A stretch of 64,000 nt of DNA from Calditrichia bacterium (GTDB lineage Bacteria; Calditrichota; Calditrichia; JAJRVZ01), in NCBI GenBank assembly GCA_963765585.1, contig CAVXXB010000008.1, positions 405,111-469,110 on the forward strand. The letters run 5' to 3'. Every line of letters starts with the position of its first letter. The stretch's first letter is position 1. The notes under the pieces are model-generated. The model did not search any database. It saw only the letters and a list, made by a program, of their open reading frames with translations, and was not told the DNA's origin. Shown one piece after another: positions 31,960 through 52,488 of the stretch. The position numbers and the translations under genes are program-made.

Positions 31960-34900
31960 TTAATCAGATTTATCCGATAGTAATGTCCGATATTTTTGGG
32001 TCGTTATCTTACGGGTGTTGTATTTTTTCATATACTCCTGATATTCATTATTTTGCGGGTAATTTTCACTATCACCATAAGGATATCGCGACATACCGAT
32101 AAACGGTAGTGGCAGAACTGTCTGCCCGGCAGCCGTATTCAGATCACCATCTTTCAACCAGCCCTGGGTATAGATTATAAAGTCCCGTGTCCAGCCCGTT
32201 TTGGTTGCAGGAAGTCCATCGGCCGCAAATGATATGCTTATCTCGTCACCTGCATTGGTAATGATGTATTTACTATCCGCCGTTTGCAGTAACTCTTCTA
32301 CATGACCATAACGTGTATAAAAACCTGTCAGATCGCGCCATATGGGTTCCGTGGTTACATCCGCATAGTCAAACCAGAAAGGTCCATGTCTTCCACCCTT
32401 GCGATACATGCGTGAAAATCCACGGTAATGGATATCAGCCGTGGAAAGAGCTAATTCATTAATTTCAATAGGTATTTCCTGGTCCCCAACTGTAAAGAAA
32501 ATATAATCCCAGTAAATGTGCATACTGGTGCGGATCCTGATCTTGCGCTCTTTGGAAAGGAATTTATCTTTCAGGTCAAGTATGACATATTTATTCTTCC
32601 CCATGGGAAAACTGACATTTTCAATCACGGTCTGCCATTTCCCCTGCTTATTTAGTACCTGCAGGTATGGCGCAATTACCTTTATATCCGAAGATTGCGA
32701 TACGGCCATATTTATACTGGCATCGGTCGGAAACACCCAGCCATTCAGATATAACATGACGGCTTCGGTCTCAGGAATATCACCAAGATCGATTACCAGG
32801 TCGTGGGGAACGGTTATGCCCTGATATTTGTCCATCTGCATGTCAGCGACGTATTTATTATCCTTCTCACGTACCAGCGGGCTGAGATCATTCCCCTGCC
32901 CATCCTGTACCGATTCTGGAGTTTTCTTCTGCTTTACTTTATACAGCTTAAATGGTGGAAATGGGGGCGGTGTAAAGCGCTCATTGACATATATATCTGT
33001 ATTCTCCGGATGGTCCACCGCCAGAAGTTTCACCTGATCAAAATAGGCCGTTTCCCAGAGTTCGGCGGTAATTTGCATTTGATATAAGCCATCTTTTTCT
33101 TTCAATAAGTGTCCGGGAATCTTGAAATAATCCTGCGAGGGATCTGAAAAGGCATAGGCCGTTTCTCCGCCCATAATGCCCAATGGCATGCCGAGAGCAC
33201 TGCGCCACAGTACATCGGTGACAAATTCAAATTTATCACCATCCCAGGTATACAGGAACGGACAGGATCCCTTTAGAATCTGTTTTTCCAACAATGCCTG
33301 ATCGCTGCCCGGTTCGAACAGATTTTGCGGAACACCATTTGTCCAAAGTACGCGAACCACATCGGCCTTTGTTCTTTGCCCCAGGCCAAAATGAGAAACC
33401 GCCTCGGTTACAACCCTGCGATTGATAGGACTCATCGGCTTTGACTTCCAGTTTGGCACCAATGCCAAAATAGTTATTCTTACCACTTCCGGTTCTGAGA
33501 CCTACCAGCTGTACTTTCAGATAATGATTCGCATTCCCGCCATCATTTCGTAATAAATAGACCCGGCCATCATCTCCTGCCATAAAAATATCCAAATCAC
33601 CATCCTCATTATAATCGGCGACCTCTATCTGCCTGGCTGACGGTAAATTTTGCGGTAGCAGAGATGACGCATCACTGAAGACACCCTTTCCGTTATTATG
33701 AAGGAGTATTACTTTATTTTTGACAGAACTGCCGGCTGCGGGTTCTCCGGAAATTATTAAATCCAGAAAACCATCATTATCAAAATCAAAAAAGGATACG
33801 GTATTGCAGGTAAAATCTTTTAAACCGGATTGTATTTCTTTCGAACGATAATCCTGTTCGAATTCAACGCCATCTTTGTTGGCGAAGAGAGAAAAAGTAC
33901 CCACACCGGCCGGAAAGTGGATCAAATCCTGTAATCCGTCATTGTTATAGTCACCCATGGCCACAGCCCGGGAGCCGTTAGCCAGTTTCATTCCGACCTT
34001 CTCAGAAATATCATCAAACTGGCCCTGACGTAAATTTGAGAACAGGTAATTGGAACCCTGGCTGTTAACTACATACAAGTCCAGATCGCCATCATCATCA
34101 AAATCCGCGAAATGTGTATCAATACTTGGCAATTTGTCACCGGAAACATTGAATTTATCTGCCATTTCGGTAAACGTCCCGTCCAGATTATTTCTGTAGA
34201 ATTTGTTCTTCTCCATATTTGCCTGGTATAAATCCAGATCACCATCATGATCAAAATCGGCAAAACAGGCGGCCAGACCATTGCCGCTTCCAGTAATACC
34301 CGCTTGCGCTGCCACATTTCGAAATTTCGAAGGATCATAATGATAATAAAGCCTGTTTTCAGTACTATTGACGATATACAGATCCAGATAGCCATCATTA
34401 TCATGGTCTGCAAAGATAGCAAAGCGATCGGCTCCGCCATGATTGATGCCCGATTCATTTATGATGTCGCCAAACTTGCCAAAATCATTTTTTAGCAGGT
34501 AGCGATAGTTCTTTCCCTGTTTGGGATTTAGTCCGGATGCATAGATATCCTGGGTGCCATTGCCATCAAAATCTGCCAGGGCAAGTATGTAATGTGCTTT
34601 TTCTGATCCGGAGGCAGAGTCACATAATACGGGCAGTTTATGCAAACCGGCAGACTCGCTGGCATCGGTGAATTTTATGGTTGCCAGTACGCCTGATGTG
34701 GTTAAATTGGATACATTTACATCCCGACGAAAACTGATTACCGGCGTACCGATAAGCGGCCCGCCGATCCCCTTTAACGCATCAAAACCGGACCGGTATA
34801 AAGGAGTTGGTTTCAGGATGTTTCTAAATATATTGAATGGAGGTGAGGCAGCTGCGGCATCATTTTTTTGCATATGTCTCAGACACTGATCGTAATAGGC

Positions 34901-35542
34901 ATTAGCTTCACCGGGAAATTCAGGCATTTGTTGTTCAATTGGTTCAAAATACCCCAGGGCCATATCTGCTTTTTTATTACGAAGAAGCAGATCGACCAGA
35001 TCAAATCGGGCCGTAATATTTGCCGGTATAAATGTGAGTACCCTGGTCAGCAATTCTTCTGCCCGCAAACTAAGTTGCGGATCCTTCGATTTTGCGTAAA
35101 TCTGCCCCAACTTGTATAAGGTTCTGATATGATCCGGATGATGTCGCAGCGTTTCCTCTAACAGGACAATTGCCTGATCTTCGCGGTTTGTCAGGATCAG
35201 TACTTCCGCCAAATTTAACTGAATTTCCGGATCCACTGCAGCTCTTTCCAGGGCAAATCGTAACTGCTTCTCAGCCTCCTGGTAATTACCCAGGCGAATA
35301 TAAACCAGCCCAAGATTGGCATAACCCAGGGCCTCATCCGGTGCGATACGGATCAATTCTTTAAATGCGGTTTCCGCTTCCGGAAGTTTATTTTCTTCCA
35401 GATATGCCAGTCCCATAGTTCTGGTAGTAATCATGTCAGGAATATTTTGTTGGTCCTGCAGATTCCCGCATGAATTAAAGAAATGAGGGATGAGGAATAT
35501 GATTGTCAGGAATAATGTAATGTTAAATTTTAAATATTTCAC
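31960..35542 (-). pseudogene. TPR + FG-GAP + ASPIC/UnbV + C-terminal extension protein, interrupted by a +1/-1 frameshift near 33440..33480
   Basis: The 768-aa ORF (33236..35542) has a signal peptide, N-terminal TPRs and FG-GAP repeats. It leaves frame after ...GSGKNNYFGIGAKLEVKAD(ESYQS). The overlapping 508-aa ORF (31960..33486) continues in another frame with ...RVVTEAVSHFGLGQRTKADVVRVLWTNG (ASPIC). The junction is at the G-run cagggttg. Confidence 0.6.
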
Positions 35543-35778: not shown

Positions 35779-37092
35779 TTACTTAAGTCGAGAATTATCA
35801 ATAACCTGAATTATTGGATTGGCCTGATTTCCACCGCCGTTGTCCCAGACAATTTCTCCTGTCACCCCTGTCATTGGTGACATACGGAACAGGATTTCAC
35901 GCAACCGAGCCCGGCTTAATCCGCTAATATGGATAGCCCGGATGATGATGTTTAGACTATCAAACAAATATGCTGCTTCTGAGGTGGGTAATTCACCGAA
36001 TAAATTATGATAGCGATCTGCAAATACACGATAGGCTGAATTATTGTGAGAGGAGAATGGTAACAGATAATTAATTTTCCTTCCAGTGAACGTTTTCAGT
36101 TTATTTATATCAAGATTTGTTATTACGGGCAAGAATACCGATAGGTGCAACTCTTTTTTGCCTAATTCATCCAATAATTCAAATATCATATCCGGAGAGA
36201 GGTGCAGTATCAACGCATCGACATTATATGGCGTAATACGTTTGACAATTTCCGGGATATCCGCGTGAACCGGGATTTCAAAGTGAAAGACCGGATTATA
36301 TGAATTCTCATTAAACACACGGGATAGTTCTCGGGAAAATAATTGTCCGTCATGGTCAGCAGTGGTTATAAATCCGATTATTTTGTATCGGCTTTTTATA
36401 ACGCCATCATGAAAAAGAGCACTGGCCTGCATACAAAAATCGGGGGGAAGTCTGAACATCCAGGGTATATTGACATAGTTTAGCGTAGGATCTGCTGATA
36501 GCGGCGCAATAAGCGGCACTCTGGCCTTTGTAACGATCTGCTCGGCAATATGTGTTGCCGCTCCGTCCTGTGATCCGATAATGGCCCAGACACTATCTTC
36601 GTAAATCAGTTTTATCATTTCTTTTGATCCGGCCCCCCAAGGATCGTCGGCCCAGCGTTGAATCAATTTAAATGGCTTTCCCTGATATCCGCCTGAGTCA
36701 TTTGCCATGGATATGGCCATATTGGCGGCATTGAAAAGCGGTTTATTTTCAGATCTTGGCAGAAACAAACCCAGTGAAATGCTATCGACTTTAGTATTAT
36801 TGCTATCCGGCCACCCGGAATACTCAGCCGGTGTATCAAGAACATGAACCGGTTTTTGTGATTCAACAGATTCCTGAGCAAGGAGAAAATTTAAACTACT
36901 GCTTAAAATAATGAGTGGAATTATTAATAGAGACTTCTGAAAAATGAAAATATTTACCTTAGCGTCATTCTGAACTTGTTTCAGAATCCCTTTAAATAGA
37001 CCCTGAAATAAATTCAGGGTGACGAAATTCAAGTATTTATTACATTTTTCAGAAGTTTCTAATATATAATATTTATGGGGAAGATTATTCAT
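35779..37092 (-). CDS. Periplasmic binding protein, Peripla_BP_6 / Leu-Ile-Val-binding (LivJ-like) family
   Basis: 437 aa (ABC-type branched-chain amino acid binding fold). The start is uncertain: the first ~45 codons run through two hairpin-GATGAC elements at 36962..37025, and the signal-peptide-like segment (IFIFQKSLLIIPLIILSS) lies after them. Confidence 0.65.
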   Translation of the reverse strand: MNNLPHKYYILETSEKCNKYLNFVTLNLFQGLFKGILKQVQNDAKVNIFIFQKSLLIIPLIILSSSLNFLLAQESVESQKPVHVLDTPAEYSGWPDSNNTKVDSISLGLFLPRSENKPLFNAANMAISMANDSGGYQGKPFKLIQRWADDPWGAGSKEMIKLIYEDSVWAIIGSQDGAATHIAEQIVTKARVPLIAPLSADPTLNYVNIPWMFRLPPDFCMQASALFHDGVIKSRYKIIGFITTADHDGQLFSRELSRVFNENSYNPVFHFEIPVHADIPEIVKRITPYNVDALILHLSPDMIFELLDELGKKELHLSVFLPVITNLDINKLKTFTGRKINYLLPFSSHNNSAYRVFADRYHNLFGELPTSEAAYLFDSLNIIIRAIHISGLSRARLREILFRMSPMTGVTGEIVWDNGGGNQANPIIQVIDNSRLK

Positions 37093-38479
37093 TGGATTGA
37101 TTCAAATCCCGCGGGACTTCATCATGAGAATAGAATTTAAAGACACCATCCTCCAGAATTACCAAAGTGGCCGGCGATCTGTTTGAGTATACCGCATCAA
37201 ATTCCTTTTTGCCGGTTACTCCTTTATAATCGGATTGATTTGCCAGCTGGTCCCGAATTAAGGCACGATTCAAACCAGCCTGTTCAACAGCATTTAATAT
37301 CATATTCATACCATCAAAGGCATGGGCCGCATAGCTTTCGGGTTCATCACCAAACCTGTCTTTAAATTGACTTTTAAATGATAACAGATCCGGATCATTG
37401 CTTTCGGGGTGATAAGGATAGGCCGCCGCAACATTCCCGGCACCGGTTCCGGCCAATTGTATGAATTCGGGTATGACCATCCGGTCGCTGCCGAGATACC
37501 ATTGATTCATGCCCAATTTCCGCATCTGCTTTAAGATCAGAGCCGATTCCCGTGCATTGCCGTATGTTATAACCCCATCAGGGTTTAAATTCCGGATTCG
37601 CTCTAACTGAGAGGTAAAATCGGTATCTCCCTCCTGATACTGCAATTCAATGACAAACGGGAATCCAAGTCTTGTGGCTGCATCGCGAAACTCATCTATG
37701 CTCATTCTGCCATAACGGTTTGTTGCACGAAGTGCCGCCACCTTTTTTAGTTTAAGTGTTTTAAATGCAAAATCGGCAAGCGTATAACACATCTGACGAT
37801 CATCGGTGATACAGCGAAACACCCAGGGAATGCTTGTTTCAACAAATGTGGGATCCGTGTCGGCGGAATTCATGACCGGTAGTTCGGCTTTGAGCGCGGC
37901 CCGGATCAATATATGACTATTTGCACCATCTACCGTACCGAGCACCGCCCAGACGCTGTCTTTATAGGCCATCATTATAACTTCTCGTCCCGATGAACGC
38001 CAGTTACCGTTATCATTCCGGATAATCAGTTTAAAAGGCACTTTATTGCGGTAACCGCCTTTAAGATTGGCCTGTTCAACAGCCAGTTGCGCTCCCTGGA
38101 GCATCCTCATGCCAATCGACGATAAATGTGAAGACTGATATCCGTCCCAACGCACCACGCGTTGATTCACATTAAACTTTAAATTTTTCAGATCACCGAT
38201 AGAATCAAGATCCGCATTGATAATCGGACCGATAAATCCTATTTTTATGCTATCTGGTAATGGGGGTTCAGATATATGCCGGCCGTAGCCCGGATACTCC
38301 AGCGTATCCAGAAAAAAACGTTTGTAAGGCTGTTCAAAACGGCTGTATGGCGCGTATTCATTGGGTGTTTTTCCATAATCTAAAGTATCACTTGAATTTT
38401 GAGCGAGAAGGCAAGTACTCATTGCACATAGAAAAATGATGCAGGATATTAGCGATATTTTACCAATTTGATGTATCAT
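37085..38479 (-). CDS. Periplasmic binding protein, Peripla_BP_6 family (second paralog)
   Basis: 464 aa with a signal peptide. Same fold signature as the downstream gene (GSQDGAATH / GTVDGANSH). It overlaps the downstream ORF by 8 bp. Confidence 0.65.
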   Translation of the reverse strand: MIHQIGKISLISCIIFLCAMSTCLLAQNSSDTLDYGKTPNEYAPYSRFEQPYKRFFLDTLEYPGYGRHISEPPLPDSIKIGFIGPIINADLDSIGDLKNLKFNVNQRVVRWDGYQSSHLSSIGMRMLQGAQLAVEQANLKGGYRNKVPFKLIIRNDNGNWRSSGREVIMMAYKDSVWAVLGTVDGANSHILIRAALKAELPVMNSADTDPTFVETSIPWVFRCITDDRQMCYTLADFAFKTLKLKKVAALRATNRYGRMSIDEFRDAATRLGFPFVIELQYQEGDTDFTSQLERIRNLNPDGVITYGNARESALILKQMRKLGMNQWYLGSDRMVIPEFIQLAGTGAGNVAAAYPYHPESNDPDLLSFKSQFKDRFGDEPESYAAHAFDGMNMILNAVEQAGLNRALIRDQLANQSDYKGVTGKKEFDAVYSNRSPATLVILEDGVFKFYSHDEVPRDLNQSNE

Positions 38480-38686: not shown

Positions 38687-39808
38687 CTACCTTAATCCCG
38701 GGTAGTACCCCTTACCCTTCCCTCTGGCTAATCCATGCCCGGTTCCGATCCAGATATCATCACCCATAAACTCTGTGCAGATGGTGAAATGGTTTGGTAA
38801 ATCCAGATTTGTCTCCACTTTATCTATTATCTTATTTCCACGCATTACTTTTGCCGTCCAGGTTTTATCATCTTCATTTTCAAGCACATAGGTAACCCAG
38901 GTATCTGAATCAAAATCCACCAGCACGCCCAATCCCTTATCGGTGCAATTATAACTTGATATTGCACTTCTTCCCAGTGACAGATTTATAAAATTACTGG
39001 GTAATCCACTGTCATGATCCATATACCCGCGCCAGTTTCTGCCATCATAACGACTTAACCCAAAATAAGTTGAGGCCCATAATACGTTATCCACATAGGA
39101 TGCGGATGTAGTGATCACATGAACCAGTCCATCATCACGATACAGATCAATCTCCATTTCGCCGTCGGGATCATGGTATACCTTCCAGCTCTCTGTCGGT
39201 ACATCCCACTCCAGAATCCCACCGCCCCAGACTGCAAAATATACCTTGTCATCATTGGCATCGACATTGTAAGTCCAGACCTCTTCCATGGGCGCATGTT
39301 TTTCATTAAAAACCGCCCATTCGCCACTCAACTGGTTATACCGACTGATCCCTGCAGTGGTAGCCACCCATACATTATCGCCCTCAATATCAATGCCATA
39401 TACCACATCATTTAATAAACCGCTGTTCATTTGCGTAAAATGTTCAAAATATCCGCCGCTGAACCGGGCGATTCCCTCACCAAATAATGCCAGCCATAGT
39501 TCACCGGTTTTGTGATCTTTGGCGATACCCATTATTACATTCCAGGGTAATCCATTGGCCTCCGTCCAGCTTTCCCACTTACCATTATAATAGAGTACCA
39601 GACCACCCTCCGTGCCGATCCACAGGCTATCGCCATCTGCTTCCAGAAAGAAAATATGATCATTTATCAACTGCCCCCCAGTTGACTCCGTTGTAAAAGT
39701 TTCCCACTCAGTATAGACAAAAGGAAATCCGGCGTTTACATCCCTATCACTTTCCTGACCAAAAGTCAAAATTGAAAATAACAGGAGGATCATTATTGAT
39801 TTATACAT
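38687..39808 (-). CDS. Secreted beta-propeller protein with two-component-regulator-propeller (Reg_prop)-like repeats
   Basis: 373 aa with a signal peptide. Repeats are of the type WIGTEGGLVLYYNGKWESW and VWVATTAGISRYN. Confidence 0.55.
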   Translation of the reverse strand: MYKSIMILLLFSILTFGQESDRDVNAGFPFVYTEWETFTTESTGGQLINDHIFFLEADGDSLWIGTEGGLVLYYNGKWESWTEANGLPWNVIMGIAKDHKTGELWLALFGEGIARFSGGYFEHFTQMNSGLLNDVVYGIDIEGDNVWVATTAGISRYNQLSGEWAVFNEKHAPMEEVWTYNVDANDDKVYFAVWGGGILEWDVPTESWKVYHDPDGEMEIDLYRDDGLVHVITTSASYVDNVLWASTYFGLSRYDGRNWRGYMDHDSGLPSNFINLSLGRSAISSYNCTDKGLGVLVDFDSDTWVTYVLENEDDKTWTAKVMRGNKIIDKVETNLDLPNHFTICTEFMGDDIWIGTGHGLARGKGKGYYPGLR

Positions 39809-39821
39809 AGTATAGTTCCAA

Positions 39822-42255
39822 TTAAAGCGTCTTTAAGTATTCCATCAAATCATTCAGTTGATCTTTTGTCAGATCATTGGTGACACCATGGGTGTCTTTT
39901 GTATTATACAGTGTCCATATTTCATCCAGCGACGCAGCCCGCCCGTCATGCAGATACGGCGGCGAGGCATAAATATTATTAAGATGGGGTACATCAAACT
40001 TGCCATGGGTATCCAATGCGGATGATGTTCCCACATCAAATTGCTCCCGGTTCGTATAATAGGGATAGGTATGACATGTATTACAGCGATTATATTCAGG
40101 AATTTCATTTCCTGAATTATCATAAATACGTTCAAATATCCGCTTCCCTCTTCGTTGTGCATCGCTAAGCTGTTCGCCGGTACGGTATCTGTTTGGCGGC
40201 CTTGGGATCGTAACAATATATCGATCCAGTGCTGCAGATTGTTCCGGTTTAAAGGGATCAATGCGGGTAAAAAATGCTGCCAGACGCGGTCCGCATTGAC
40301 GTTTTAAAGTGGGATTTTTTCCAGTCCATTTAAAAGGTGCGGTATCATTGATTCCCCGTAGCGTCCGGTTATCAACCGGGTTTACCCCAAGACCATCCGG
40401 TTCGATATCATAGGTCAGACCATCGATACCACCATCGGGATGACAGGAATGACAGGAAAACTGTCGCGCATAGGTATATTCCGAACTGTGAAATATGCGC
40501 TCGCCATATCTTGCCTGGGTAATTTCATCTGGTCCGCCAAGATCGATGGTTTTAATCCGTTCTGCGTGATTCGATATCAATAACCGATATGGCATCATCA
40601 AGGCCGTCTGCCACATATAAAAATTTATTATTCGGCGAAACCGCCATTCCCCTGGGACTTTGCCCCACCTTTATTCGTTCGACCACAAATTGAAGGCTCA
40701 TTCCCAGGTGGTTGGCCATCTCTGCACGGTCTTTAGCAGATAAATTCTGTGAGAGTATGTTTTTCATGGCTTCAATATCGATCATTGCCACTTCTTGCAC
40801 ACCGCCGCCTGTTGCGAATGCATACCGGCCATCGCCTGAAAACACAATATCAGTCGGATCAGCAAAGAAGTCATTAATTTCATCCAGCAATAACTGGTCT
40901 ACGCGACCGTCCTTCCATAAAATCCCGATACCGTTGGTCATGATCCAGCCCTGAATATTGCGGGTCATGGGTACCAGGTTTTTGGTACGAATCAATGTCA
41001 CCAGGGCAAAATGGGCATCAGGTGATACGGCGACACCTTGTATCAGGTTTGCATCCCTGACTGGAATCCGTTTTCTTACCGTCGCGGTTTTTGTGTCAAT
41101 CACTGTAACTTCAGATACGGAAGTTGATCTGAATTTTCCATATCTTGGCAGATTATTGGTGATGTATACAGAACTGCCATCCGGTGATATTGCGGCGCCC
41201 CAGGGTCCGCGTGATGCTGCCAGACGTTTAACCTCGTGCCCTTTAGCCAAATCCACAACAGACACATCGTAGGTTCCGGCATTGGCCACATACATAAACT
41301 TGCCATCGGGAGTAATGACCATTTCATGGGGTTCATCACCAACAATAATCGTATTTATCACCTGGTAAGACCTGGTATCCACGACCGAAATATTATCTGA
41401 TGCCCGATTACTCACATAAGCCCGTGATTGATCCGGTGAAAAGCAAACAAAATGCGGCTGCATACCGATATCAATTTCCCTGAGAATCTTATCGGTCCCG
41501 GTATCAACAACAATCAGACTATTGGAGGCCTCGCAGGCAATAAACAAGCGTTCCCCATCCCTGGTAACGGCCAGGTTAAACGGGGTTTTATAAACTACCT
41601 TCTTTTCATTAACATTCTGCTTTTTTGAGGCAGATGATTTAATTACCGGTTTCGTACGTTCAACATAGTCGTCGTCAATGGGAATAATGCCGGGTGTAAG
41701 TGCGCCCCCTTTTCCGAAATGAGCGATGGCGGCAAACGCCGAATCAAAGTCAAATATTTTTGAATTCAAAACAGATACATGAGAATTTTTTTCTTTATGA
41801 CATATCATGCAATCACGCTTTTGCGTCTTTTTCAGACCTGCACGGATTGCTTTGTCCCGGTCCCGCATAATATCGGCATCAATATAGTCGCTACCGGGTC
41901 CATGACATAACTCGCATTGCACCCCATCCTCAAAGCGGAAAGTATCATCACGCTCCCATTCTTCAACATTATATGCTGTTGTGTGACATCCCAGACAAAT
42001 GGGACTCTCCCAGGGTTCAATATCAATTCCGGATAATTCAGCAATCTCCTTTGACTCCGGTTTAAATAAAACGGAATGGGCCTGCGCGTGTTTTGACTGC
42101 CGCCAGATATTGAATTGATCCCGGTTACCCTGCTGATGATGACATTGGCGGCAGACCTGTTCACCTACATAAATGCGATCAGCTGGCTGCTGCGCACTCA
42201 GGTTCATAGCGGCAAAAATAAACATCCAGATTAGTTTAGAATATTGATTTTTCAT
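39822..42255 (-). pseudogene. Fusion of an N-terminal tetra-heme cytochrome c, a YVTN beta-propeller and a C-terminal di-heme cytochrome c peroxidase/MauG-like domain, split by a frameshift at ~40552..40616
   Basis: The 567-aa ORF has CRQCH, CLGCH, CELCH and CMICH, followed by YVTN-type propeller repeats (YVSNRASDNISVVD, YVANAGTYDVSVVD, YVADGLDDAISVIDIES). The overlapping 264-aa ORF continues ...RIKTIDLGGP...CHSCHPDG...CNTCHT. The junction is in a C-rich stretch (ccattcccctgggactttgcccc). Confidence 0.55.
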
Positions 42256-42441: not shown

Positions 42442-43260
42442 CTATTGCTGATTACTAAATTGCAATACTACGACTTCTTTATTCTTCTTTCTGATGCCAT
42501 AAATAGTTCCCTTTTCGGAACGATCCCAGGCGATTCCCTGACCGAATATATTGATCGGTACAACTTCAACCAGATCTAAAACAGAACCTCGATCTGGAAT
42601 CTGAAAGACATAGGTTTCGGGCAAATCATGTCCCGTACAATACAGCAGACTATCCACACCCCATGAACCACCGGAATTACTCATGGGTCTGAATTTTTCA
42701 ACTACTTCCTCCGGAAATACCCATGATTCTATTTCACGCCATTGGCCATCGAGTTTAACCACACTTGTCCATTCGGATCCCTTACCTGTCACATGTTTCC
42801 ATTTTTCATAGTGGGCAAAACCGGCCCACCAATAGCCATCATGCCAGTCAAGCCATGTACAACTACCCCGGTATATGCCAAAACTGAACGAATCGATATG
42901 CTCTAATGTGGCTGCATCCCATACTTCAATTGAACTGGTCATAGGTACCGCAGAATAATTAGAGTGCGCACAATACAACTTGCCGTCAATAATTACGCCG
43001 CTATCCAGGTGAATTATCGGTCCGTCACCGTCTTCCTTCCATTGAGCCACCAGTTCACCGGTTGTTTTATCGTATTTTCCGATTCTTTGACTATCGATTA
43101 CATAAATATAATCCTGGTCAATGGCAACGCCCTGCCGGGCCTCTTTCATTTTAAATGTCTTTATTTCTTTAAATTCCCGGGTTCCTGCATAGGTTTGTGA
43201 ATTAAACAGTACTATAGTCAGGCAGATAATTATACTTAGTGTAAAAAAATGCTTTGTCAT
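42442..43260 (-). CDS. Secreted hypothetical protein (beta-rich, ~270 aa)
   Basis: Signal peptide only. No recognised motifs. Confidence 0.45.
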   Translation of the reverse strand: MTKHFFTLSIIICLTIVLFNSQTYAGTREFKEIKTFKMKEARQGVAIDQDYIYVIDSQRIGKYDKTTGELVAQWKEDGDGPIIHLDSGVIIDGKLYCAHSNYSAVPMTSSIEVWDAATLEHIDSFSFGIYRGSCTWLDWHDGYWWAGFAHYEKWKHVTGKGSEWTSVVKLDGQWREIESWVFPEEVVEKFRPMSNSGGSWGVDSLLYCTGHDLPETYVFQIPDRGSVLDLVEVVPINIFGQGIAWDRSEKGTIYGIRKKNKEVVVLQFSNQQ

Positions 43261-43453: not shown

Positions 43454-45082
43454 CTACTCGATTATTTTAATCACCTGGTTCGCTGATATGTTTTCAAGTA
43501 CCTGGGTAGTACCACCAGGCCAGCGAATTTCTATTTTATCTATAGTTTTCGCATTTCCCAGTCCAAAATGTAGCCGGGGATCACTTTGTGACAGATACCC
43601 GGAACTGCTTACGCGCCACTTTGTCTGGACAAGTTTATTTGCTGTCAACCTGACACGACAACCAATACCATCACGGTTGCTTTTTGTACCCTGGAGCTGA
43701 ATAGAAATCCAGTTTTGTGTGTTTCCACCATCATTCCGTAACAAACGCGGCCGGTTATTCAGATTTAATATGAGAATATCCAGATCGCCATCATTATCAT
43801 AATCCCCGACAGCGGAGCCGCGGCTGACAAACTTTTCCTGAAAATCAGATCCCAATTTATGAGAGATATTTTCAAAGCGGTTGCCTGCCTGGTTTATCAG
43901 CAGCAAATCTTCCTCACCTATCAAACGGTGGGGATGCCCGTTGCTTATAAATAAATCGCTGTACCCATCATGATCAAAATCAAATATATTGCATGACCAG
44001 CTGGTATATTGGCCGCAGGCCGCAGCAATACCCATTCTGGCACTCATCTCCTCGAAGTATCCCGATCCGGTATTTTTATAATAACAACCATAGTCCATGT
44101 CCGGTACAATGATATCGACCATGCCGTTTAAATCAAGATCACCAAATTCGCCACTCATTGCCGAAGTCGCCTCACCATTCTGGCCAAAGCCGGTGCCTGT
44201 TTGAAGTGCCACATCCGTAAAAGTGCCATCGCCGTTGTTGCGGTATAAATAATTCTCCATGGCATCATTGGCAACGAAGATATCCCAGTCCCCATCATCA
44301 TCATAATCACAGGAACTGACACCCATGGCCCGTCCTTCGGGGTTGTAAACACCTGCAGTTTTTGTCACATCACTGAAAGTACCATCCCCATTATTATGAT
44401 ACAAAATATCTGCCTGGCCATGATAGGCCAGCGGTCCGGGAAATTTTTCTGCAGCATAGAAATATTTATAATCGGGATCATATTCGATATAATTTCCCAC
44501 ATACAGATCCAGAAAGCCATCCAGATCGTAATCAAGAAATGTGCTGCCTATCCCATACAGATCATTTTCCAGGCCTGCCTGAGACGTGAAATCCGTGAAT
44601 GTGCCATCACCATTGTTCCGGTAGAACACATTGGCGCCCCAATTTGATACAAATACATCCTGATCACCATCATTATCATAGTCACCCGTAACCACAGCCA
44701 TTCCCATTCCTTTATGCCCCAGACCACTCTCTGCAGTAACGTCGGTAAATGTATGATCACCGTTATTGCGATACAGTGCATTGCGCAGTTTATCTTTATT
44801 TTTTCGGCCGCGCTTATGGCTGATACCTTCGATATATGCGCCGTTCACAAGATATATATCCAGATCTGAATCGCCATCATAGTCAAAAAAACAACAACCA
44901 CCCGCATTGGATTCGATAAGATTACTCATTTCATCATCGCCGAAATTATGAATAAAAGAAATACCCGATATTTCGGTTACATCAGATAATTGCTGATCCT
45001 TATTTTGTGCATCCCCAATATGAATCATACCAAAGATATAAAAGAGGATTGTTACAGTTCTGGCGATACCAGTTAATTTCAT
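43454..45082 (-). CDS. FG-GAP + ASPIC/UnbV secreted protein (CRTAC1-like)
   Basis: FG-GAP repeats are present. The C-terminus reads ...SSGYLSQSDPRLHFGLGNAKTIDKIEIRWPGGTTQ. The likely true start is MKLTGIART (signal peptide) at ~45082, not the longest-ORF start at 45169 (which would overlap the upstream gene by 73 bp). Confidence 0.8.
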   Translation of the reverse strand: MKLTGIARTVTILFYIFGMIHIGDAQNKDQQLSDVTEISGISFIHNFGDDEMSNLIESNAGGCCFFDYDGDSDLDIYLVNGAYIEGISHKRGRKNKDKLRNALYRNNGDHTFTDVTAESGLGHKGMGMAVVTGDYDNDGDQDVFVSNWGANVFYRNNGDGTFTDFTSQAGLENDLYGIGSTFLDYDLDGFLDLYVGNYIEYDPDYKYFYAAEKFPGPLAYHGQADILYHNNGDGTFSDVTKTAGVYNPEGRAMGVSSCDYDDDGDWDIFVANDAMENYLYRNNGDGTFTDVALQTGTGFGQNGEATSAMSGEFGDLDLNGMVDIIVPDMDYGCYYKNTGSGYFEEMSARMGIAAACGQYTSWSCNIFDFDHDGYSDLFISNGHPHRLIGEEDLLLINQAGNRFENISHKLGSDFQEKFVSRGSAVGDYDNDGDLDILILNLNNRPRLLRNDGGNTQNWISIQLQGTKSNRDGIGCRVRLTANKLVQTKWRVSSSGYLSQSDPRLHFGLGNAKTIDKIEIRWPGGTTQVLENISANQVIKIIE

Positions 45083-45096
45083 TTTATTTCCGATTA

Positions 45097-47037
45097 TTAG
45101 TTTTCTTTTTTGGTTCTGACCTTCTCCAAATATGGAGTTAAATCGTAAGGCGCACCCATATCGATCCATTCTATCAGGAGCATTTTTTCCTTCTCGCTCA
45201 GAATATCATTTTTGTGAACCGGCGGTTCGGATATCTCCGATGTATCTTTCAAATGATCTGTTAAAATAATGTCCATTGTCAGACTACTGTTTATTGCCCA
45301 TCCAGGAACTATATATGTTTTATCATCCGCATTTTTCCAGGCAAGTAGATCCAAATAGAAATCTTCATAAGAAAAGTCTCTGCCGGAAGAATTATTATCT
45401 TTTATCGGGGATAATATATGTCCGGATCCATGACATTCAGGAATTGCACATTTTTGCATAAGCATGGGTGCGATTTTATGTCTAAAGTCAATTGGGTTGG
45501 TATTTTCAGGAACATCCGTCAGATCGACCGGTGGTTTTACGATCGCATTTACCAGAATATTGGGCGGTGATAATTCGCGATTTTCATGACATCCAATGCA
45601 TCCGCGATTTTCGTTACCCATTGCCCATGTCCACCCCTCCTGGGTCCGGATTTTCATTTTGTTTTTATTTAATAAGTGAAAACTCAATGGCACTTCGGCC
45701 GGAACCCGCACATGGAAGGATCCGTCATTCTCCACAGGTGCCACACCCAGAACCCTGGCCGGCAGGCTATTTGGATTGATCTGATCAGGTTTTTGCATCT
45801 CTTTTTTTGGCAGACCTTCAATAATCCGGACATATTTTATATCGCCGGGTGAAATATTTTTTCCGGTATCCAAATTGGTCCGATAGCTATCCATGCAATA
45901 GAATACAGCGGTTGTCGCGCCGGGAATCAGCCAGTTGGATCTGCCTTTTGCCGGGGTATGTGAAGTGAGAATTTGTGTGTCAATGGTATGCCATCCGGCC
46001 TCACCATAAATTTTTTCAATTTTATCACCGGAAGAAGGATCCAGTTGATATACTGCAAATTCAGCCTCCTTTGAGTTCGATCGGTACGAGGCAAGTAATC
46101 CGCCATCGGGCATGGGACAAGGGCTATGGTAAAGACCCTCTTCTGCAATAATTGTTTTCCTGTATGAATTCAGTGGTCTGCGATGGGAAACTTCGGCAAT
46201 ATCACCACCACCAGGCCAATTTTGTTCATCCGATTCAATATAGTATACCCGGTTATCATACTCAGATGCATGTACCATCTCTTTGAAAAGAGGCAATTCA
46301 TGATTACCATAATATGGCATCAGGTCGGTGCCATCGACATTCACTGCCATCAGTGCCAGTTTTCCACCGGCAGAGGGTTGCCAACTGCTGAAAACAATCC
46401 GGCCATCCGGTAACACATCGGGAGAATAATCGCTATATAGATTATAAGTGAGCCGGTAGGTATTTTTTCCCTGGTGATCGGTTCCGTAGAGGGCCAAAAT
46501 TGCCCTGGATTCGATATTATTATACCAGGCATGTTCATTTCCGGCATATACAATTTGCGGTGTCGGCTGGGGATCATTCAGATAGAAACGGTTTCCGGCA
46601 TATACCGGCATCATGCAGTCACCGGATGCGCGGGTAATTTGCTTTTTATGGGATCCATCTGATTTCATTGACCAAATTTGCCAGTAGTCATTCTCATTTA
46701 TTTTTCCACTAAATATGATATTCAGTCCATCAAAAGAAATATCCGGATCACAGGCCGCAAAGAAATCCTGAGTCAGATTTTTTATTGTATTACTTTGCAA
46801 GTTATAGTTGACAATTCTCGCACTCTTGACATAACGATCGGAAATTGAGGATATATTTTCATATCTGCTTTTATCGGAATTTGTGTACTGCGGAACCTGG
46901 ACAAATATGAAGTCAATAGTTTTAGCATACTGTGCATTAATATCAGTTGTGATATAGCAAATGAAAAAAAGAATAAGAAAATGCCAATAAACTTTATCGA
47001 TATAATTGTGATTCGCTAGTGATTGTTCTTCTTTCAT
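45097..47037 (-). CDS. Secreted TolB/PD40-like beta-propeller protein with two C-terminal c-type heme-binding motifs
   Basis: 646 aa. Propeller-like repeats (FDGLNIIFSG..., DGRIVFSSW). The C-terminal part has GCIGCHENRE and CAIPECHGSGH (CXXCH x2). Confidence 0.5.
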   Translation of the reverse strand: MKEEQSLANHNYIDKVYWHFLILFFICYITTDINAQYAKTIDFIFVQVPQYTNSDKSRYENISSISDRYVKSARIVNYNLQSNTIKNLTQDFFAACDPDISFDGLNIIFSGKINENDYWQIWSMKSDGSHKKQITRASGDCMMPVYAGNRFYLNDPQPTPQIVYAGNEHAWYNNIESRAILALYGTDHQGKNTYRLTYNLYSDYSPDVLPDGRIVFSSWQPSAGGKLALMAVNVDGTDLMPYYGNHELPLFKEMVHASEYDNRVYYIESDEQNWPGGGDIAEVSHRRPLNSYRKTIIAEEGLYHSPCPMPDGGLLASYRSNSKEAEFAVYQLDPSSGDKIEKIYGEAGWHTIDTQILTSHTPAKGRSNWLIPGATTAVFYCMDSYRTNLDTGKNISPGDIKYVRIIEGLPKKEMQKPDQINPNSLPARVLGVAPVENDGSFHVRVPAEVPLSFHLLNKNKMKIRTQEGWTWAMGNENRGCIGCHENRELSPPNILVNAIVKPPVDLTDVPENTNPIDFRHKIAPMLMQKCAIPECHGSGHILSPIKDNNSSGRDFSYEDFYLDLLAWKNADDKTYIVPGWAINSSLTMDIILTDHLKDTSEISEPPVHKNDILSEKEKMLLIEWIDMGAPYDLTPYLEKVRTKKEN

Positions 47038-47058: not shown

Positions 47059-47928
47059 TTACTGGTGATTATTTCCGGATAAATTTCTTCCCACTGCCAG
47101 GGCGACAGGAATAAGTCCTTTCATTAATTCACAAAAGGTCTCAGGATTGAGTGATTGTTCTCCATCGCATAGCGCTTTACTAGGATCATGATGTGCTTCA
47201 ATGAGCAATCCGTCGGCACCCGCTGCAATAGCTGCCTTTGCCAATTCCGGCACCAACCACCAGTGGCCGGCACTATGACTCGGATCCACAATCAATGGCA
47301 GATGGGTGTATCTTTTTAATAAAGGAATCGCACTGATGTCCAGCGTAAATCTTGTGGCCATTTCAAACGTACGTATGCCACGCTCACACAAAATCACATT
47401 AGTATTACCCTGTTTCATTATATATTCAGCTGCGAAGAGGAATTCCTCCACAGTTGCCGACATTCCCCTTTTCAACAGCACTGGCTTCCCGGATTTACCA
47501 ACTTCTTCTAACAAAGCACTATTGTGCATATTACGCGAACCCACCTGCAATATGTCTACACAATCCGCCATGAGCGTAACTTTTCGAGTATCCATGACCT
47601 CACTGACAACCGGAATATCCAATTTCCGCCGAACCCGTGCTAAAATTTTTGCACCTTCGTCATGTAATCCCTGAAAACTATATGGCGATGTACGCGGCTT
47701 AAAGGCACCACCTCGCAGAATAGCGGCACCGCATTTTTGAACCATTTGGGCGGTTTGAAAAGTCTGCTCCTCATTTTCGACCGAACAGGGGCCGGCAATG
47801 ATTACTATTTCATTACCACCAATGTGTACACCAGACACGTTGACGATTGTTTTTTCCTGAACAGATTTTCTACCTGTATATTTAAATTGTTCAGAAATAC
47901 GCGGGTTTAGATATTTAATCTCTGTCAT
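47059..47928 (-). CDS. 3-deoxy-7-phosphoheptulonate (DAHP) synthase, type I-beta (KDO8PS-like fold)
   Basis: 289 aa. The motifs VIIAGPCSVENEEQ, AILRGGAFKPRTSPYSFQG, PVVSEVMD and CERGIRTFE are typical of Thermotoga/Bacillus-type DAHP synthase. Confidence 0.8.
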   Translation of the reverse strand: MTEIKYLNPRISEQFKYTGRKSVQEKTIVNVSGVHIGGNEIVIIAGPCSVENEEQTFQTAQMVQKCGAAILRGGAFKPRTSPYSFQGLHDEGAKILARVRRKLDIPVVSEVMDTRKVTLMADCVDILQVGSRNMHNSALLEEVGKSGKPVLLKRGMSATVEEFLFAAEYIMKQGNTNVILCERGIRTFEMATRFTLDISAIPLLKRYTHLPLIVDPSHSAGHWWLVPELAKAAIAAGADGLLIEAHHDPSKALCDGEQSLNPETFCELMKGLIPVALAVGRNLSGNNHQ

Positions 47929-48003
47929 TAGTAATAATAATATCTTGTTTGCACCGCCATCTAACGTTATTTATTTTCTTGTTGTACAGCAATGGCTTCT
48001 ATT

Positions 48004-48561
48004 TCAACCAACAAATCTTCGCGGCATATTGTCAGCTTGTATACCTGTGCTGGCGGGCAGAGGATCCAGACCCAGCCAGGAATAAAATGCAGTTCTAACT
48101 TCATTAAAATCTTTATAGTCACGTGACATATCACGGAGATAACAAGAAGTTCTGACGATATCATGCCAGTTCATCGATTCAGCACGTAGTAATTCGGAGA
48201 TGTTTCTGAATGTACGCCAGCATTGCGCGCGAAAATCACCCATATGCACCGATTTTCCGTGCTCATCGACACTTGCTGTTCCTGAAATCAGCATTACTTT
48301 ATATCCCCCTAAATTCAGACAGAGCGCTCTTGAAAAGGATGAAGGCTTTTGATAGTCATATGCTTCATTCAGAGTGTTTGCTGCACTTACTGCATTCTTC
48401 TCTACCGGCATCATACCCTCAGCATACTCAGGTCTGACAAATGATTTCGTATTCAAGCCAGCATCGAGAAGGCCCAGTTTTTTCAATTCACTTTTTTCTG
48501 CTTCAGACATCGTAGCCACATCCAATGTGATCACACTATTTGATTCAGTTACAGTTGTCAT
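48004..48561 (-). CDS. RidA/YjgF/RutC-family protein with an N-terminal extension
   Basis: 185 aa. The C-terminal 125 aa fit the Rid fold (GTASVDEHGKSVHMGDFRAQCWRTFRNISELL...DIVRTSCYLRDMSRDYKDFNEV). Confidence 0.7.
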   Translation of the reverse strand: MTTVTESNSVITLDVATMSEAEKSELKKLGLLDAGLNTKSFVRPEYAEGMMPVEKNAVSAANTLNEAYDYQKPSSFSRALCLNLGGYKVMLISGTASVDEHGKSVHMGDFRAQCWRTFRNISELLRAESMNWHDIVRTSCYLRDMSRDYKDFNEVRTAFYSWLGLDPLPASTGIQADNMPRRFVG

Positions 48562-48722: not shown

Positions 48723-49821
48723 TTACAGGGCATTCAGTGCAAAGGCATACGCACCCAACGCAACTGCTTCACTTGTACCTATTTTGGATATTCCAACGCC
48801 CACACGGCTCATTGGATCATATAAAATCTTTTTCGAACTGCCTGGAACGGTAATCTCTTTTGATTCCCCTTTTATAAATAATTCCAGATCATCTTCATCT
48901 TCCAGATTAAACGTACGAACCGCTAAACGACGGTAAGTATCGCCACTAAAATTTCTATAACTGGCATTCATTTCTTCAATCATCTTTGGAAAAAACAGAG
49001 ATGCAGCACCGGCGACTCCACCTCCGATCACCCCAATTCCATCAATTAAAGTTAAAACGTTTGCGATTGCATCGCCGAGTACCTCTCCCATGCGGTTATA
49101 TGAACTGAGCGCAGCCTCTTTATTACCCTGAAGTTTTCCTGTGGCAATTTCATAAATCTCTTTCGGAGTTGGAACATCTTTAAAAGGAATTCCGACAATT
49201 TTGGCATATTCACGCTGAACTGCGCGAATACTCACACCCTCCTCCACATTCATTTCAGGATCCAATTTGTTTCGTAATAACCATACTTCTCCTGCTCCGG
49301 AATTATCACCAATAAATAATTTTCCATTTCGAACAATACCGGCACCAAATCCAGTCCCCAGGGTAAAGCCGACAAGATTATTAAATCTTTTGGGACTACC
49401 AGCATTTTCGAGCAATTGGTTAATATATGGAAGATATCCGGCAATAGCCTCGCCATAACCGTACAGATCGCCATCATTATTTATATAAACAGGTAATTTA
49501 AATTTTTCTTCGAGCATTGGCCCAAGTGCTATTCCACCGCGAAAACCAGGCAAGTTTCCGAGATTTCCGATTATACCGTTGGGATAATCAGCCGGTCCGG
49601 GAAAAGCAAAGACTGATAGCCACTGGTTTATCCGGCAATCGGCTCTCCAATTGTTCAAACCCATCGACAATTGTATTCAAACATCGTTCCAGATTATCTG
49701 CATTTGAGGGTAACGATATTGGTTCACTAATTTTTTGGCCACCTTGTATAGCAATAAATACAAAGTTTGTACCACCGGCATCCAATGTCATTACAGTTCT
49801 TTTATCATTTTTATAATCCAT
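48723..49821 (-). pseudogene. ROK-family sugar kinase (glucokinase/NagK-like) with a frameshift near 49590..49670
   Basis: The 77-aa ORF (MTLDAGGTNFVFIAIQ... ATP-binding N-terminus) and the 315-aa ORF (AFPGPADYPNGIIGNLGNLP...) overlap in different frames. Confidence 0.65.
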
Positions 49822-51134: not shown

Positions 51135-52488
51135 TTATCCTATTCCCAATTTTTTCTGTATGTGTTCGAGTGAAATGCCTTTTGTTTCAATCATAACATA
51201 TATTACCCAAAATAACTGTCCGATCATACAAAGAGCATAAAATGCGAATGTATGGCCGCCGGAGACTTCTGCAAATATTGGGAATGTCCATGAAATTAAT
51301 GCTGCCATTACCCAATGTGTAAAACTGCCAAGGGCTTGACCACGTGCACGAACCCGATTGGGGAAAATCTCACTAATGAATACCCAGATCACCGCTCCCT
51401 GCCCGAATGCATGTGAAGCTATAAATACAATCAGACTTACAAGAACAACTATACTTCCGGTATCCGTGAATTCAGTTCCAAAAGTATAAAAAGCCCAGGC
51501 AGGCTGAACTCAAACTTACTATATATCCAATGGATCCGACGACCATCAATTTTTTTCTGCCAAAATTGTCGATTAACAATAGCGCAAGCATCGTAAATAT
51601 TAAATTAGTGCCTCCAATAGCAACTGTTTGCAGTAAAGCCGATTCTGCGCCTGCTCCGGCCATCTTAAATATATGCGGAGCATAATACATTAAAGCATTT
51701 ATTCCGGACAATTGATTGAACATTGCGATAGATACGGCCAGAAGTATCGGTTTTATGTATTTTTTACAATAAAATGGTTCGTTTAACTGATGATGTTCTA
51801 AATCGAGTGACTTTTGAATTTCATTAACTTCTTCTCCAATACTGCCGGAATCAGTACCACAGTTTTCTAATACTATTTTAGCTTCGTCAACTCTGCCAAC
51901 CGCTATTAACCAGCGGGGACTCTTAGGATTTAAAATTAAGAGAAAGAAAAATATAAAAGCAGGAACTGCTTCAACTCCGAACATCCATCTCCATTCTATT
52001 GCACCTAAACTCAGGCCTGATATCACATAATTAGAAAAGAAAGCCAGGAGAATACCAAAGACAATATTGAATTGAGTGAGTGCAACCAGCCTGCCTCGAT
52101 ATTTAGCCGGAGATATTTCTGCTATATACATTGGAGAAACAACTGAGGCACCGCCTACACCCAAACCGCCAATCAATCTAAAAAATAAAAATGAATACCA
52201 ATCCCACGCAAGTGCAGTACCCAAGGCAGAAACAAAATAGAGTACTGCTAAAACATAAAGAATATTTTTTCTGCCATATTTATCTGTCGGCCTGCCAACA
52301 GTAATTGCCCCAATTATTGTCCCTATGAGAGCGCTGGCAACGGTAAACCCCAACCAAAAACTTGACAAATCGTATGTTTGTGCCAGCCAATGAGTGGTGC
52401 CAGAGATTACAGCCGTATCAAATCCAAAAAGCAATCCACCGAGTGAAGCAATTAGTGAATATAAAAAAACATTCTTTTGAGTTTTCAT
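51135..52488 (-). pseudogene. MFS sugar-porter-family transporter (XylE/AraE-like), interrupted between 51392 and 51472
   Basis: The 338-aa ORF has sugar-porter signatures (GRPTDKYGRKN, RLIGGLGVGGASVVSPMYIAEISPAKYRGR, GINALMYYAP). The separate 85-aa C-terminal piece has FPNRVRARGQALGS...IETKG. A ~79-bp gap lies out of frame between them. Confidence 0.65.

Follow-up and report, generated by a model that had tools for sequence, protein, structure and literature searches.

The stretch 39822-42255 on the minus strand of the window (the whole 64,000-nucleotide stretch of Calditrichia DNA that was analysed) is a single gene for an exported six-heme protein, in which a tetraheme cytochrome c554-like module is followed by a beta-propeller and a di-heme domain. 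Judged from its sequence, the gene is a distant relative of the hydrazine synthase (HZS) of anammox bacteria, its propeller and di-heme domain corresponding to the beta-gamma unit of that enzyme. It is a short (4+2 heme) member of the clade I HZS beta-gamma homologs, an assignment made by a point-by-point match to the published description of that group. We consider it likely that this account holds as a whole, that is, a single gene for a short clade I homolog, standing in a conserved cassette and interrupted by a surplus base that is most likely an assembly error.

The gene is read in two open reading frames. ORF A (40552..42255, 567 aa) carries CXXCH sites at residues 35, 87, 114 and 149, after which the YVTN repeats follow, and ORF B (39822..40616), in a different frame of the same minus strand, carries CHSCH and CNTCH, which lie at residues 601 and 724 once the frame is repaired to give 810 aa. 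The original prediction had seen this division, with four heme sites and YVTN repeats in the first frame and two heme sites in a CCP_MauG context in the second, and both parts were confirmed by the sequence and by the TIGR02276 and PF03150 models. It had also placed the overlap of the two frames correctly at 40552..40616, but the overlap is not the C-rich stretch that had been described, as C makes up 17 of 65 positions on the plus strand and 12 of 65 on the coding strand, compared with 23% across the window, and there is no C homopolymer. Attachment of c-type heme needs export of the protein, and a Sec-type signal peptide opens ORF A. About 0.005 CXXCH motifs would be expected by chance in 810 residues by our own estimate, and all six are invariant in an alignment of 28 homologs. 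A search for full-length orthologs, which had been proposed earlier, recovered intact forms of 797-820 aa that are 71-77% identical to the repaired protein over 97-100% of the sequence.

The N-terminal module matches PF13435 with 60.3 bits (cut-off 20.8), covering profile positions 1-84 of 84, and matches cytochrome c554 of Nitrosomonas europaea (1bvb) at 1.7e-6. It shares with that protein (1BVB/1FT5) the four-heme module and the same motif spacing, and it has in addition three invariant histidines (His56, His159 and His179) and one invariant methionine (Met130) that are candidates for distal ligands. The N. europaea cytochrome is a free carrier, whereas here the module forms the N-terminal domain of a larger enzyme, and most relatives have two copies of it.

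The propeller matches TIGR02276 in five stretches (121.8 bits; cut-off 27.85), and it is homologous to HZS-beta. The best NCBIfam models are those for the hydrazine synthase beta-gamma fusion (216.9 bits) and for the beta subunit (196.7 bits), and the curated cut-offs of NF052342, NF052340 and NF052341 are all missed (216.9 against 1250, 196.7 against 560 and 77.7 against 625, respectively). HZS-beta (5c2v_B) is matched at 1.4e-41 over residues 223-559 and is also the first-ranked PDB match in Foldseek, with a target-normalised TM score of 0.88 and 28% identity over the alignment. Matches to the generic propellers of L-NosZ, YncE, the PQQ-associated propeller and NirF fall well under their cut-offs and reflect a shared fold only. 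The AlphaFold model, built on the alignment of 28 sequences, has pLDDT above 90 across most of the propeller, which includes an invariant loop at about residues 420-438 that is modelled with low confidence. In both heme regions pLDDT is below 50, so the model is used for the propeller and heme ligation is argued from sequence alignment.

The di-heme domain matches HZS-gamma (5c2v_C) at 5e-19 to 6.7e-20, compared with 7.5e-8 for the best cytochrome c peroxidase (CCP), and its key residues (CHSCH 601-605, Trp643, Gln653, Cys654, CNTCH 724-728 and His789) are invariant in the 28 homologs. Cys654 (RQC654G) takes the position of gamma-Cys165 (RVC165G), which provides the third covalent link to the heme, and it probably forms a third thioether to the catalytic heme here as well. 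His789 (KDTHG) aligns with gamma-His332 (KDMH332G), and together with CNTCH728 it predicts that a bis-His heme like that of HZS gamma-II (His229/His332) has been retained. Other residues of the HZS active sites are not kept. The position of gamma-Asp168, the proton donor at heme gamma-I of HZS (PMC12607021), is taken by Leu658 (or by Arg657 if the alignment is left ungapped), both of which are invariant. Trp643 replaces gamma-His144 between the two hemes (PFKW versus PFRH), as it does in clade I homologs (PMC12758564), and the Mg-binding glutamate of the HZS-beta loop is missing (PVCEAENGQ versus PMTRNIQGW, with no acidic residue), as the acidic residue also is from other HZS homologs (PMC12758564).

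Compared with the anammox enzyme (Kuenenia stuttgartiensis, 5C2V), the Calditrichia protein thus shares the arrangement of a di-heme CCP/MauG-like domain behind a seven-bladed YVTN propeller, the third heme-linking cysteine, the predicted bis-His electron-transfer heme, the propeller loop insert and a clustered alpha partner. Beta and gamma are also fused in Scalindua, and the tetraheme c554 module is an addition in the Calditrichia protein. The domain order had been taken to be unfamiliar from any characterised protein, but propeller followed by di-heme domain is the order of HZS beta and gamma, and the fusion with c554, together with its gene cluster, was published in 2025 (PMC12758564). The suggestion of a propeller-bound substrate found no support, since the HZS propeller has no cofactor and is likely structural, and one of its loops may control the tunnel between the hemes (PMC12607021).

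Table 1. Coordinates of the features in the window
Feature	Coordinates	Strand	Evidence or remark
Whole c554 / beta-propeller / di-heme gene	39822..42255	-	810 aa once one base is removed; stop codon 39822-39824
Sec-type signal peptide	42193..42255	-	MKNQYSKLIWMFIFAAMNLSA followed by QQ; direct sequence reading
Tetraheme cytochrome c554-like module	41761..42183	-	PF13435 and 1bvb match
Seven-bladed YVTN beta-propeller, HZS-beta homolog	40530..41592	-	5c2v_B match, AlphaFold model, Foldseek
HZS-gamma / CCP-like di-heme domain	39825..40529	-	5c2v_C match stronger than CCPs
Single surplus base shifting the frame	40560..40563	-	AGA-A-CGG, equivalently CGC-A-GAA; ortholog comparison
HZS-alpha homolog, 646-aa ORF	45097..47037	-	One CXXCH (CIGCH at 480), one CX4CH (CAIPECH)
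FG-GAP / ASPIC (CRTAC1-type) protein	43454..45169	-	FG-GAP_3 153.9 bits, UnbV_ASPIC 85.4 bits
272-aa exported protein, no assigned family	42442..43260	-	Cassette insert
373-aa exported Reg_prop-type propeller protein	38687..39808	-	4a2l (BT4663 sensor propeller) match 3.5e-17
Peripla_BP_6 substrate-binding protein, 464 aa	37085-38479	-	PF13458 152.4 bits
Peripla_BP_6 substrate-binding protein, 437 aa	35779-37092	-	PF13458 83.1 bits
Frame-broken RidA-like gene	~48040		
Frame-broken TPR-FG-GAP-ASPIC gene	~33400		
Frame-broken ROK kinase gene	~49600		
Frame-broken sugar transporter gene	~51480		

The neighbouring genes form a cassette whose order and strand are conserved in 82 related loci from Gemmatimonadota, Acidobacteriota, Planctomycetota, Verrucomicrobiota, Omnitrophota and others. 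The alpha-homolog has 5c2v_A as its sole PDB match (1e-41) and matches PF18582 (HZS_alpha) with 75.2 bits and NF052339 with 189 bits (cut-off 800); it lacks an equivalent of Tyr591, with ENRE after CIGCH484 and no tyrosine at +4. The FG-GAP / ASPIC gene, whose true start likely lies near 45082, is in the same position in 79 of the 82 loci. The 373-aa propeller gene starts 13 nt past the beta-gamma stop codon and is directly downstream of the beta-gamma gene in 81 loci, and the genes for the 464-aa and 437-aa substrate-binding proteins are kept in 73 and 72, respectively. For the 272-aa protein there is no Pfam or NCBIfam match and no PDB match below E = 0.03; its gene has a counterpart in none of the 82 loci, and the insert is confined to the Calditrichia genome. 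An Rfam search of the 64-kb window gave no match. When ORFs from the flanks were clustered, most clusters were made up of false ORFs, antisense or in an alternative frame, from high-GC genomes, and only the RidA-like cluster was real. With transketolase as the marker, the nearest named relatives reach 62-64% identity and belong to Ignavibacteria, Bacteroidota and Neomarinimicrobiota, which gives a loose placement of the organism.

This arrangement agrees with the description of clade I by Hagglund et al. (Genome Biol Evol 2025, PMC12758564). The clade I examples include Syntrophobacter fumaroxidans, Paludibaculum fermentans, Thermogutta terrifontis and Opitutus terrae, and the cluster is described as an alpha-homolog, an FG-GAP/CRTAC1 gene, the beta-gamma homolog and two substrate-binding proteins. 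The Calditrichia gene shares with this group the fused beta-gamma unit with N-terminal c554 heme motifs, the cysteine at the gamma-Cys165 position and the tryptophan at the gamma-His144 position, and its cassette shares the alpha-homolog upstream, the FG-GAP/CRTAC1 gene between and the two substrate-binding protein genes downstream. The N-terminal heme motifs number eight in clade I, or four in O. terrae, and the Calditrichia protein has four. It differs from the group in the one-base frame break, in the additional 272-aa gene that separates the FG-GAP gene from the beta-gamma gene, and in an alpha-homolog that has CX4CH rather than CXXCH at its second heme site. The accessible part of that report makes no mention of the 373-aa propeller gene. 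We found family matches in at least 592 stretches of species-representative genomes; the family spans many bacterial phyla with a mean column identity of 66% across them, 8+2 hemes are usual, and a total of ten CXXCH motifs is found in the majority of the 82 related loci.

The similarity of the di-heme domain to peroxidases raises the alternative of a cytochrome c peroxidase that carries its own electron-donor module, detoxifying H2O2 in the periplasm and unrelated in function to the other cassette genes. The domain passes the gathering threshold of CCP_MauG (PF03150, 29.3 bits against 25.6, with the best stretch confined to residues 723-780), and it shares with the CCP/MauG family two CXXCH hemes, the bridging tryptophan, WxG...Q and the PYxHDG motif. 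The bridging tryptophan and the distal-pocket glutamine, the equivalent of Gln104 in CCPs, are present and invariant in the 28 homologs (KW643TGKNPTLKRQ653 versus FWDGRAKDLKEQ of 1iqc), and Trp643 and Gln653 fit the CCP motif WDGR...Q. However, the match to HZS-gamma (6.7e-20) is far stronger than that to any CCP (7.5e-8 at best), and neither the His/Met ligation of CCPs nor the His/Tyr ligation of MauG is found by alignment. The ETMG of 1iqc, whose methionine we take to be the ligand of the electron-transfer heme in CCP, falls on NTKD, with no methionine or tyrosine and with His789 three residues further on. By alignment, a distal histidine is absent from the loop YDIEPDGLG, where CCPs carry their distal ligand, and in a direct reading no glutamate equivalent to Glu114 is found ten residues past Gln653. 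CCP/MauG proteins also lack the fusion to a propeller and a heme wire, and the strict conservation of six genes speaks for a multi-subunit function. We therefore regard a peroxidase as unlikely.

Having relatives without a frame break allows the break itself to be assessed. On the minus strand the sequence reads TCA CGC AGA A CGG ATT, with one base more than in the intact orthologs, which encode IDI(D/Q)SR(R/K)(R/Q)IKVIDLGG at this site, and the frame switch in tblastn falls between 40561 and 40562. All 82 related loci show one uninterrupted HSP across the break point, and the 246 codons past the shift are free of stop codons and 87% identical to the intact ortholog P0001, compared with 72% ahead of it. 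At least five genes are frame-broken in about 20 kb, the c554-beta-gamma gene included and at least four others lying between 31 and 52 kb; in the three breaks resolved so far the cause is one surplus base each. An indel of the assembly is most likely because the related loci are unbroken, the downstream codons are so well conserved and at least four other genes nearby are frame-broken. The gene could instead have been inactivated recently and be a young pseudogene in this Calditrichia bacterium, as the surplus base stands in the deposited sequence and the truncated 567-aa product exists in public protein collections (P0054). This we find improbable, since the downstream codons are intact, the other broken genes are unrelated, and dense, fresh frameshifts with no other decay suit sequencing error better. 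Of the two causes considered originally, the sequencing indel is thus upheld, and a true frameshift is unlikely given the number of broken genes nearby. The contig is prone to indels, so its other apparent frameshifts should not be taken as biology.

A MauG-like maturase, which would oxidise a residue of a cassette partner by long-range hole hopping to form a protein-derived cofactor, seems to us very doubtful. In its favour, the di-heme domain belongs to the MauG/CCP type and has the bridging tryptophan, the propeller has a weak likeness to the beta subunit of quinohemoprotein amine dehydrogenase (TIGR03907, 73 bits), and several exported partner proteins are always co-encoded. Against this, MauG itself is matched at E of about 0.6 only, its tyrosine ligand is absent by alignment, and the fused wire of four or eight hemes is out of keeping with the maturases known to us, none of which has this feature.

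Two further readings are rejected. There is next to no chance that the gene is expressed by a programmed +1 ribosomal frameshift, or that a beta-like and a gamma-like subunit are translated separately, as they are in Kuenenia: the subunits are separate genes in Kuenenia and Brocadia (PMC12758564), but all relatives of the Calditrichia gene are fused, in all 82 loci the frame runs on through the break position with no stop, the site CGC AGA ACG GAT TAA shows no slippery or re-pairing sequence on direct reading, and ORF B, if started at its own ATG, gives a product that lacks a signal peptide and so could not be exported for heme attachment. The original prediction had named separate genes with a signal peptide on the second as the outcome that would speak against one six-heme fusion gene for an exported redox protein, and the fusion is borne out, with no locus split at the break. 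It is equally hard to credit that the gene encodes a genuine hydrazine synthase and thereby points to an anammox organism that had gone unnoticed: homologs of all three subunits are clustered and the third heme-linking cysteine is kept, but the scores (217 against a cut-off of 1250 for beta-gamma, 189 against 800 for alpha) and the absence of gamma-Asp168, gamma-His144, the acidic residue of the beta loop and alpha-Tyr591 reject it, the gene order is reversed relative to anammox bacteria, and the 2025 study reaches the same verdict for the family (PMC12758564).

By analogy with HZS, we infer that the clade I homolog described here works in the periplasm as a reductase of a small N- or O-oxide and draws its electrons from the fused heme wire. 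What it reduces, which way its electrons flow and its association with the alpha-homolog are likewise modelled on HZS. After export the protein would acquire six c-type hemes, and it would pair with the alpha-homolog as HZS-beta-gamma does with HZS-alpha. Electrons would enter through the c554 wire, reach the predicted bis-His heme (Cys724/Cys727/His728 and His789) and arrive at the catalytic heme (Cys601/Cys604/His605) by way of the conserved Trp643. The catalytic heme probably has Cys654 as the partner in a third thioether, and its distal site would be open and would be the place where a small oxidant is reduced, either NO or hydroxylamine, or perhaps peroxide. The invariant loop of the propeller is a possible gate for a channel leading to the heme of the alpha-homolog. 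No hydrazine would be made by the c554-beta-gamma protein. This mechanism assigns no role to the two substrate-binding proteins or to the extra propellers. A broader proposal, which we put forward as a long shot, is that the six-gene cassette (alpha-homolog, FG-GAP, c554-beta-gamma, 373-aa propeller and two amino-acid-type binding proteins) is a non-anammox relative of HZS with two-site periplasmic nitrogen chemistry, in which nitrogen derived from NO or nitrite would be reduced at the gamma-type heme and the product channelled to the alpha-type heme, to react with an amine or amino acid supplied by the orphan binding proteins. If this were true, there would be a widespread, unrecognised enzyme that forms N-N or N-O bonds or produces hydroxylamine in Acidobacteriota, Planctomycetota, Gemmatimonadota and others.

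As a single finding this gene is unremarkable: it is a frame-broken member of a family that was described in 2025, gene cluster and architecture included. Among widespread proteins, the family is the nearest relative of hydrazine synthase, which is the defining enzyme of anammox. It is always accompanied by the same five partner genes, and its function, once known, would reveal the chemistry from which hydrazine synthase evolved and might expose an unrecognised step in nitrogen or reactive-oxygen cycling.

The feature encodes an exported protein in which six c-type heme sites are conserved. ORF A starts with a Sec-type signal peptide; four CXXCH motifs (residues 35, 87, 114 and 149) come next and then the YVTN repeats of a propeller. 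ORF B, in the next frame, carries CHSCH and CNTCH. Together with the Pfam matches (Cytochrome_C554, 60.3 bits; YNCE/Lactonase propellers; CCP_MauG, 29.3 bits vs a cut-off of 25.6) and the five YVTN repeat units found with NCBIfam, this bears out the original prediction of four CXXCH motifs and a propeller ahead of a second-frame ORF with two more CXXCH sites. The ORF overlap was also said to be C-rich, which it is not: its 65 bases contain no C run, and the C count is 17 for the plus strand and 12 for the coding one.

[quoted passage not shown] In NCBIfam the top-scoring models are "hydrazine synthase subunit beta-gamma fusion" (216.9 bits), beta (196.7) and gamma (77.7), all far below the curated cut-offs of 1250, 560 and 625 bits, respectively. 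In the PDB, HZS-beta (5c2v_B) is matched by residues 223-559 at 1.4e-41 and HZS-gamma (5c2v_C) by the C-terminal domain at 5e-19, or 6.7e-20 when searched alone; the domain's best di-heme peroxidase match (7.5e-8) and its match to MauG (about 0.6) are far weaker. The AlphaFold model is confident for the propeller only, and its top PDB match is HZS-beta (target-normalised TM 0.88, 28% identity).

The original prediction knew this domain order from no characterised protein; exactly this arrangement is published, under the name "clade I", among the HZS homologs of Hagglund et al. 2025 (PMC12758564). In the passages of that paper describing clade I, the genes run, from upstream to downstream, alpha-homolog, FG-GAP/CRTAC1, fused beta-gamma homolog and two substrate-binding proteins; the fusion has eight N-terminal c554 heme motifs, or four in Opitutus terrae, as in the window gene. 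Gamma-Cys165 is described as kept (Cys) and gamma-His144 as replaced by Trp, with alpha-Tyr591 and the beta-loop glutamate lost. The same passages conclude that clade I proteins are not hydrazine synthases and propose no function; they do not mention the 373-aa propeller gene, and the window cluster differs from their description in an extra 272-aa ORF. Dalcin Martins et al. 2023 (PMC10732223) had earlier proposed a broad family of hzs-like genes whose products act on other substrates. The window gene is a further member of this already-described, uncharacterised family.

All tested positions of the beta-gamma protein are invariant in 28 homologs. The third heme link of HZS, gamma-Cys165, is kept as Cys654, and gamma-His332, the bis-His ligand of heme gamma-II, as His789; gamma-Glu122 is conservatively changed to Asp620, gamma-His144 is replaced by Trp643, and the proposed proton donor gamma-Asp168 is lost (Leu658 or Arg657). 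The HZS beta-loop segment CEAEN reads TRNIQ, with no acidic residue, and the propeller has an invariant loop of low AlphaFold confidence (about residues 420-438). The di-heme domain keeps the CCP (di-heme cytochrome c peroxidase) motif WDGR...Q as Trp643 and Gln653 and has YDIEPDGLG, with no His, for the distal-His loop. A plain peroxidase is improbable. A MauG-like maturase, suggested by the Pfam family and disfavoured by the structure search, is very improbable.

The HZS-alpha homolog of the window has no Tyr at +4 of CIGCH, and its second heme site, aligned with CAMCH of HZS-alpha, is CAIPECH (CX4CH; residues about 527-533). Across about 70 loci this site is CXXCH or CX4CH by lineage, roughly half each, and a search for CXXCH only would count the CX4CH alpha-homologs as being without the alpha-II heme.

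Features of the gene cluster and its surroundings in the window
Feature	Position	Strand	Remarks
ORF A	40552..42255	minus	567 aa
ORF B	39822..40616	minus	next frame relative to ORF A
HZS_alpha-domain protein	45097-47037	minus	sole PDB match HZS-alpha, 1e-41
FG-GAP/ASPIC protein	43454-45169	minus	
272-aa exported protein	42442-43260	minus	between FG-GAP and beta-gamma genes
373-aa exported Reg_prop-type propeller	38687-39808	minus	directly after beta-gamma
Peripla_BP_6 binding proteins (two)	37085-38479, 35779-37092	minus	
TPR-FG-GAP-ASPIC gene, frame-broken	33236-35542 + 31960-33486		break about 33400; one surplus base vs intact ortholog in L001
RidA-like gene, frame-broken	47970-48561		break about 48040; one surplus base vs intact ortholog in L001
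ROK kinase, split	49588-49821 + 48723-49670		break about 49600, adjoins short T run; domain scans and ORF lists
Sugar transporter, split	51472-52488 + 51135-51392		break about 51480, adjoins short T run; domain scans and ORF lists
DAHP_synth_1 (KdsA-like) gene	47059-47928		intact, 289 aa
Other FG-GAP genes	12235-15072, 23926-25623, 26097-29627, 30012-31652		

The break between the two ORFs had been attributed to either a sequencing indel or a true frameshift, and the former, as an assembly artefact, is most likely. Intact orthologs (797-820 aa, 71-77% identity with the sequence after repair) have ...AISVIDI(D/Q)SR(R/K)(R/Q)IKVIDLGGP... at the junction, where the window has TCA CGC AGA A CGG ATT AAA on the minus strand; dropping one A at plus-strand 40560-40563 gives ...IDIESRRRIKTIDLGG..., a residue-for-residue match to the orthologs. 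The 246 codons after the shift contain no stop and are 87% identical to the intact ortholog P0001, vs 72% before it. A single tblastn alignment covers the junction in 82/82 fetched related loci: none of them shares the shift, and none has a gene pair in its place. Five otherwise well-conserved genes are frame-broken within about 20 kb, which marks the assembly as indel-prone and does not suggest programmed frameshifting or gene decay. Three related beta-gamma genes (L013, L053 and L061) have their own frame changes at other positions, all three in the N-terminal c554 region, with an additional one in L013 close to where the di-heme domain binds its second heme; the L053 gene sits on a contig of 1.3 Mb. 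Assembly indels are the probable cause here too.

Across species-representative genomes, c554-beta-gamma has at least 592 confirmed matching stretches, the phyla among the matches listed being Gemmatimonadota, Acidobacteriota, Planctomycetota, Verrucomicrobiota, Omnitrophota, Bdellovibrionota and others. Ten CXXCH motifs in total is the usual number in the 82 loci, and the window gene is of the rarer 4+2-heme form. In a cluster of same-direction genes, c554-beta-gamma is co-encoded with the HZS-alpha homolog plus four further exported proteins, and the inspected loci keep the order alpha-homolog (present in 70/82), FG-GAP (79/82), beta-gamma, 373-aa propeller (81/82), binding protein 1 and binding protein 2 (73/82 and 72/82); where genes were absent, the cases examined had a contig end close by. 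The 373-aa propeller resembles the sensor propeller of the Bacteroides hybrid two-component system BT4663 (4a2l, 3.5e-17). The 272-aa protein matches nothing in Pfam, NCBIfam or the PDB, and its ORF is found in the window genome only, none of the 82 loci having a counterpart.

At least six FG-GAP genes lie in the window, five of them (not that at 12235-15072) with an ASPIC/UnbV domain, and one is a 1176-aa ORF with two complete FG-GAP and ASPIC units in one frame. The organism's transketolase shares 62-64% identity with its counterparts in Ignavibacteria, Bacteroidota and Neomarinimicrobiota. A RidA/YjgF-family gene (about 195 aa, without an obvious signal peptide) lies on the cassette strand in about 30 loci (22, plus 8 with a double-length form), its median distance ahead of the beta-gamma start being about 4.3 kb. 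A KdsA gene or remnant sits between it and the alpha-homolog both in the window and in L001, which is the closest syntenic locus from a metagenome (RidA/YjgF gene at 534-1127) and has a 92-aa remnant only (1172-1450).

The original prediction holds as an observation, and its interpretation is supported in part only. Among the functional readings, we give about an even chance to a reductase, in which the beta-gamma protein would form a complex with the alpha-homolog and the c554 wire would supply electrons to the bis-His heme; these would then pass Trp643 to a triply linked catalytic heme with an open distal site, which would reduce a small N- or O-oxide, with the propeller loop perhaps gating a channel that leads to the alpha heme. 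More speculatively, an amine or amino acid may be a co-substrate, as hinted by the orphan binding proteins and the often-adjacent RidA-like gene.
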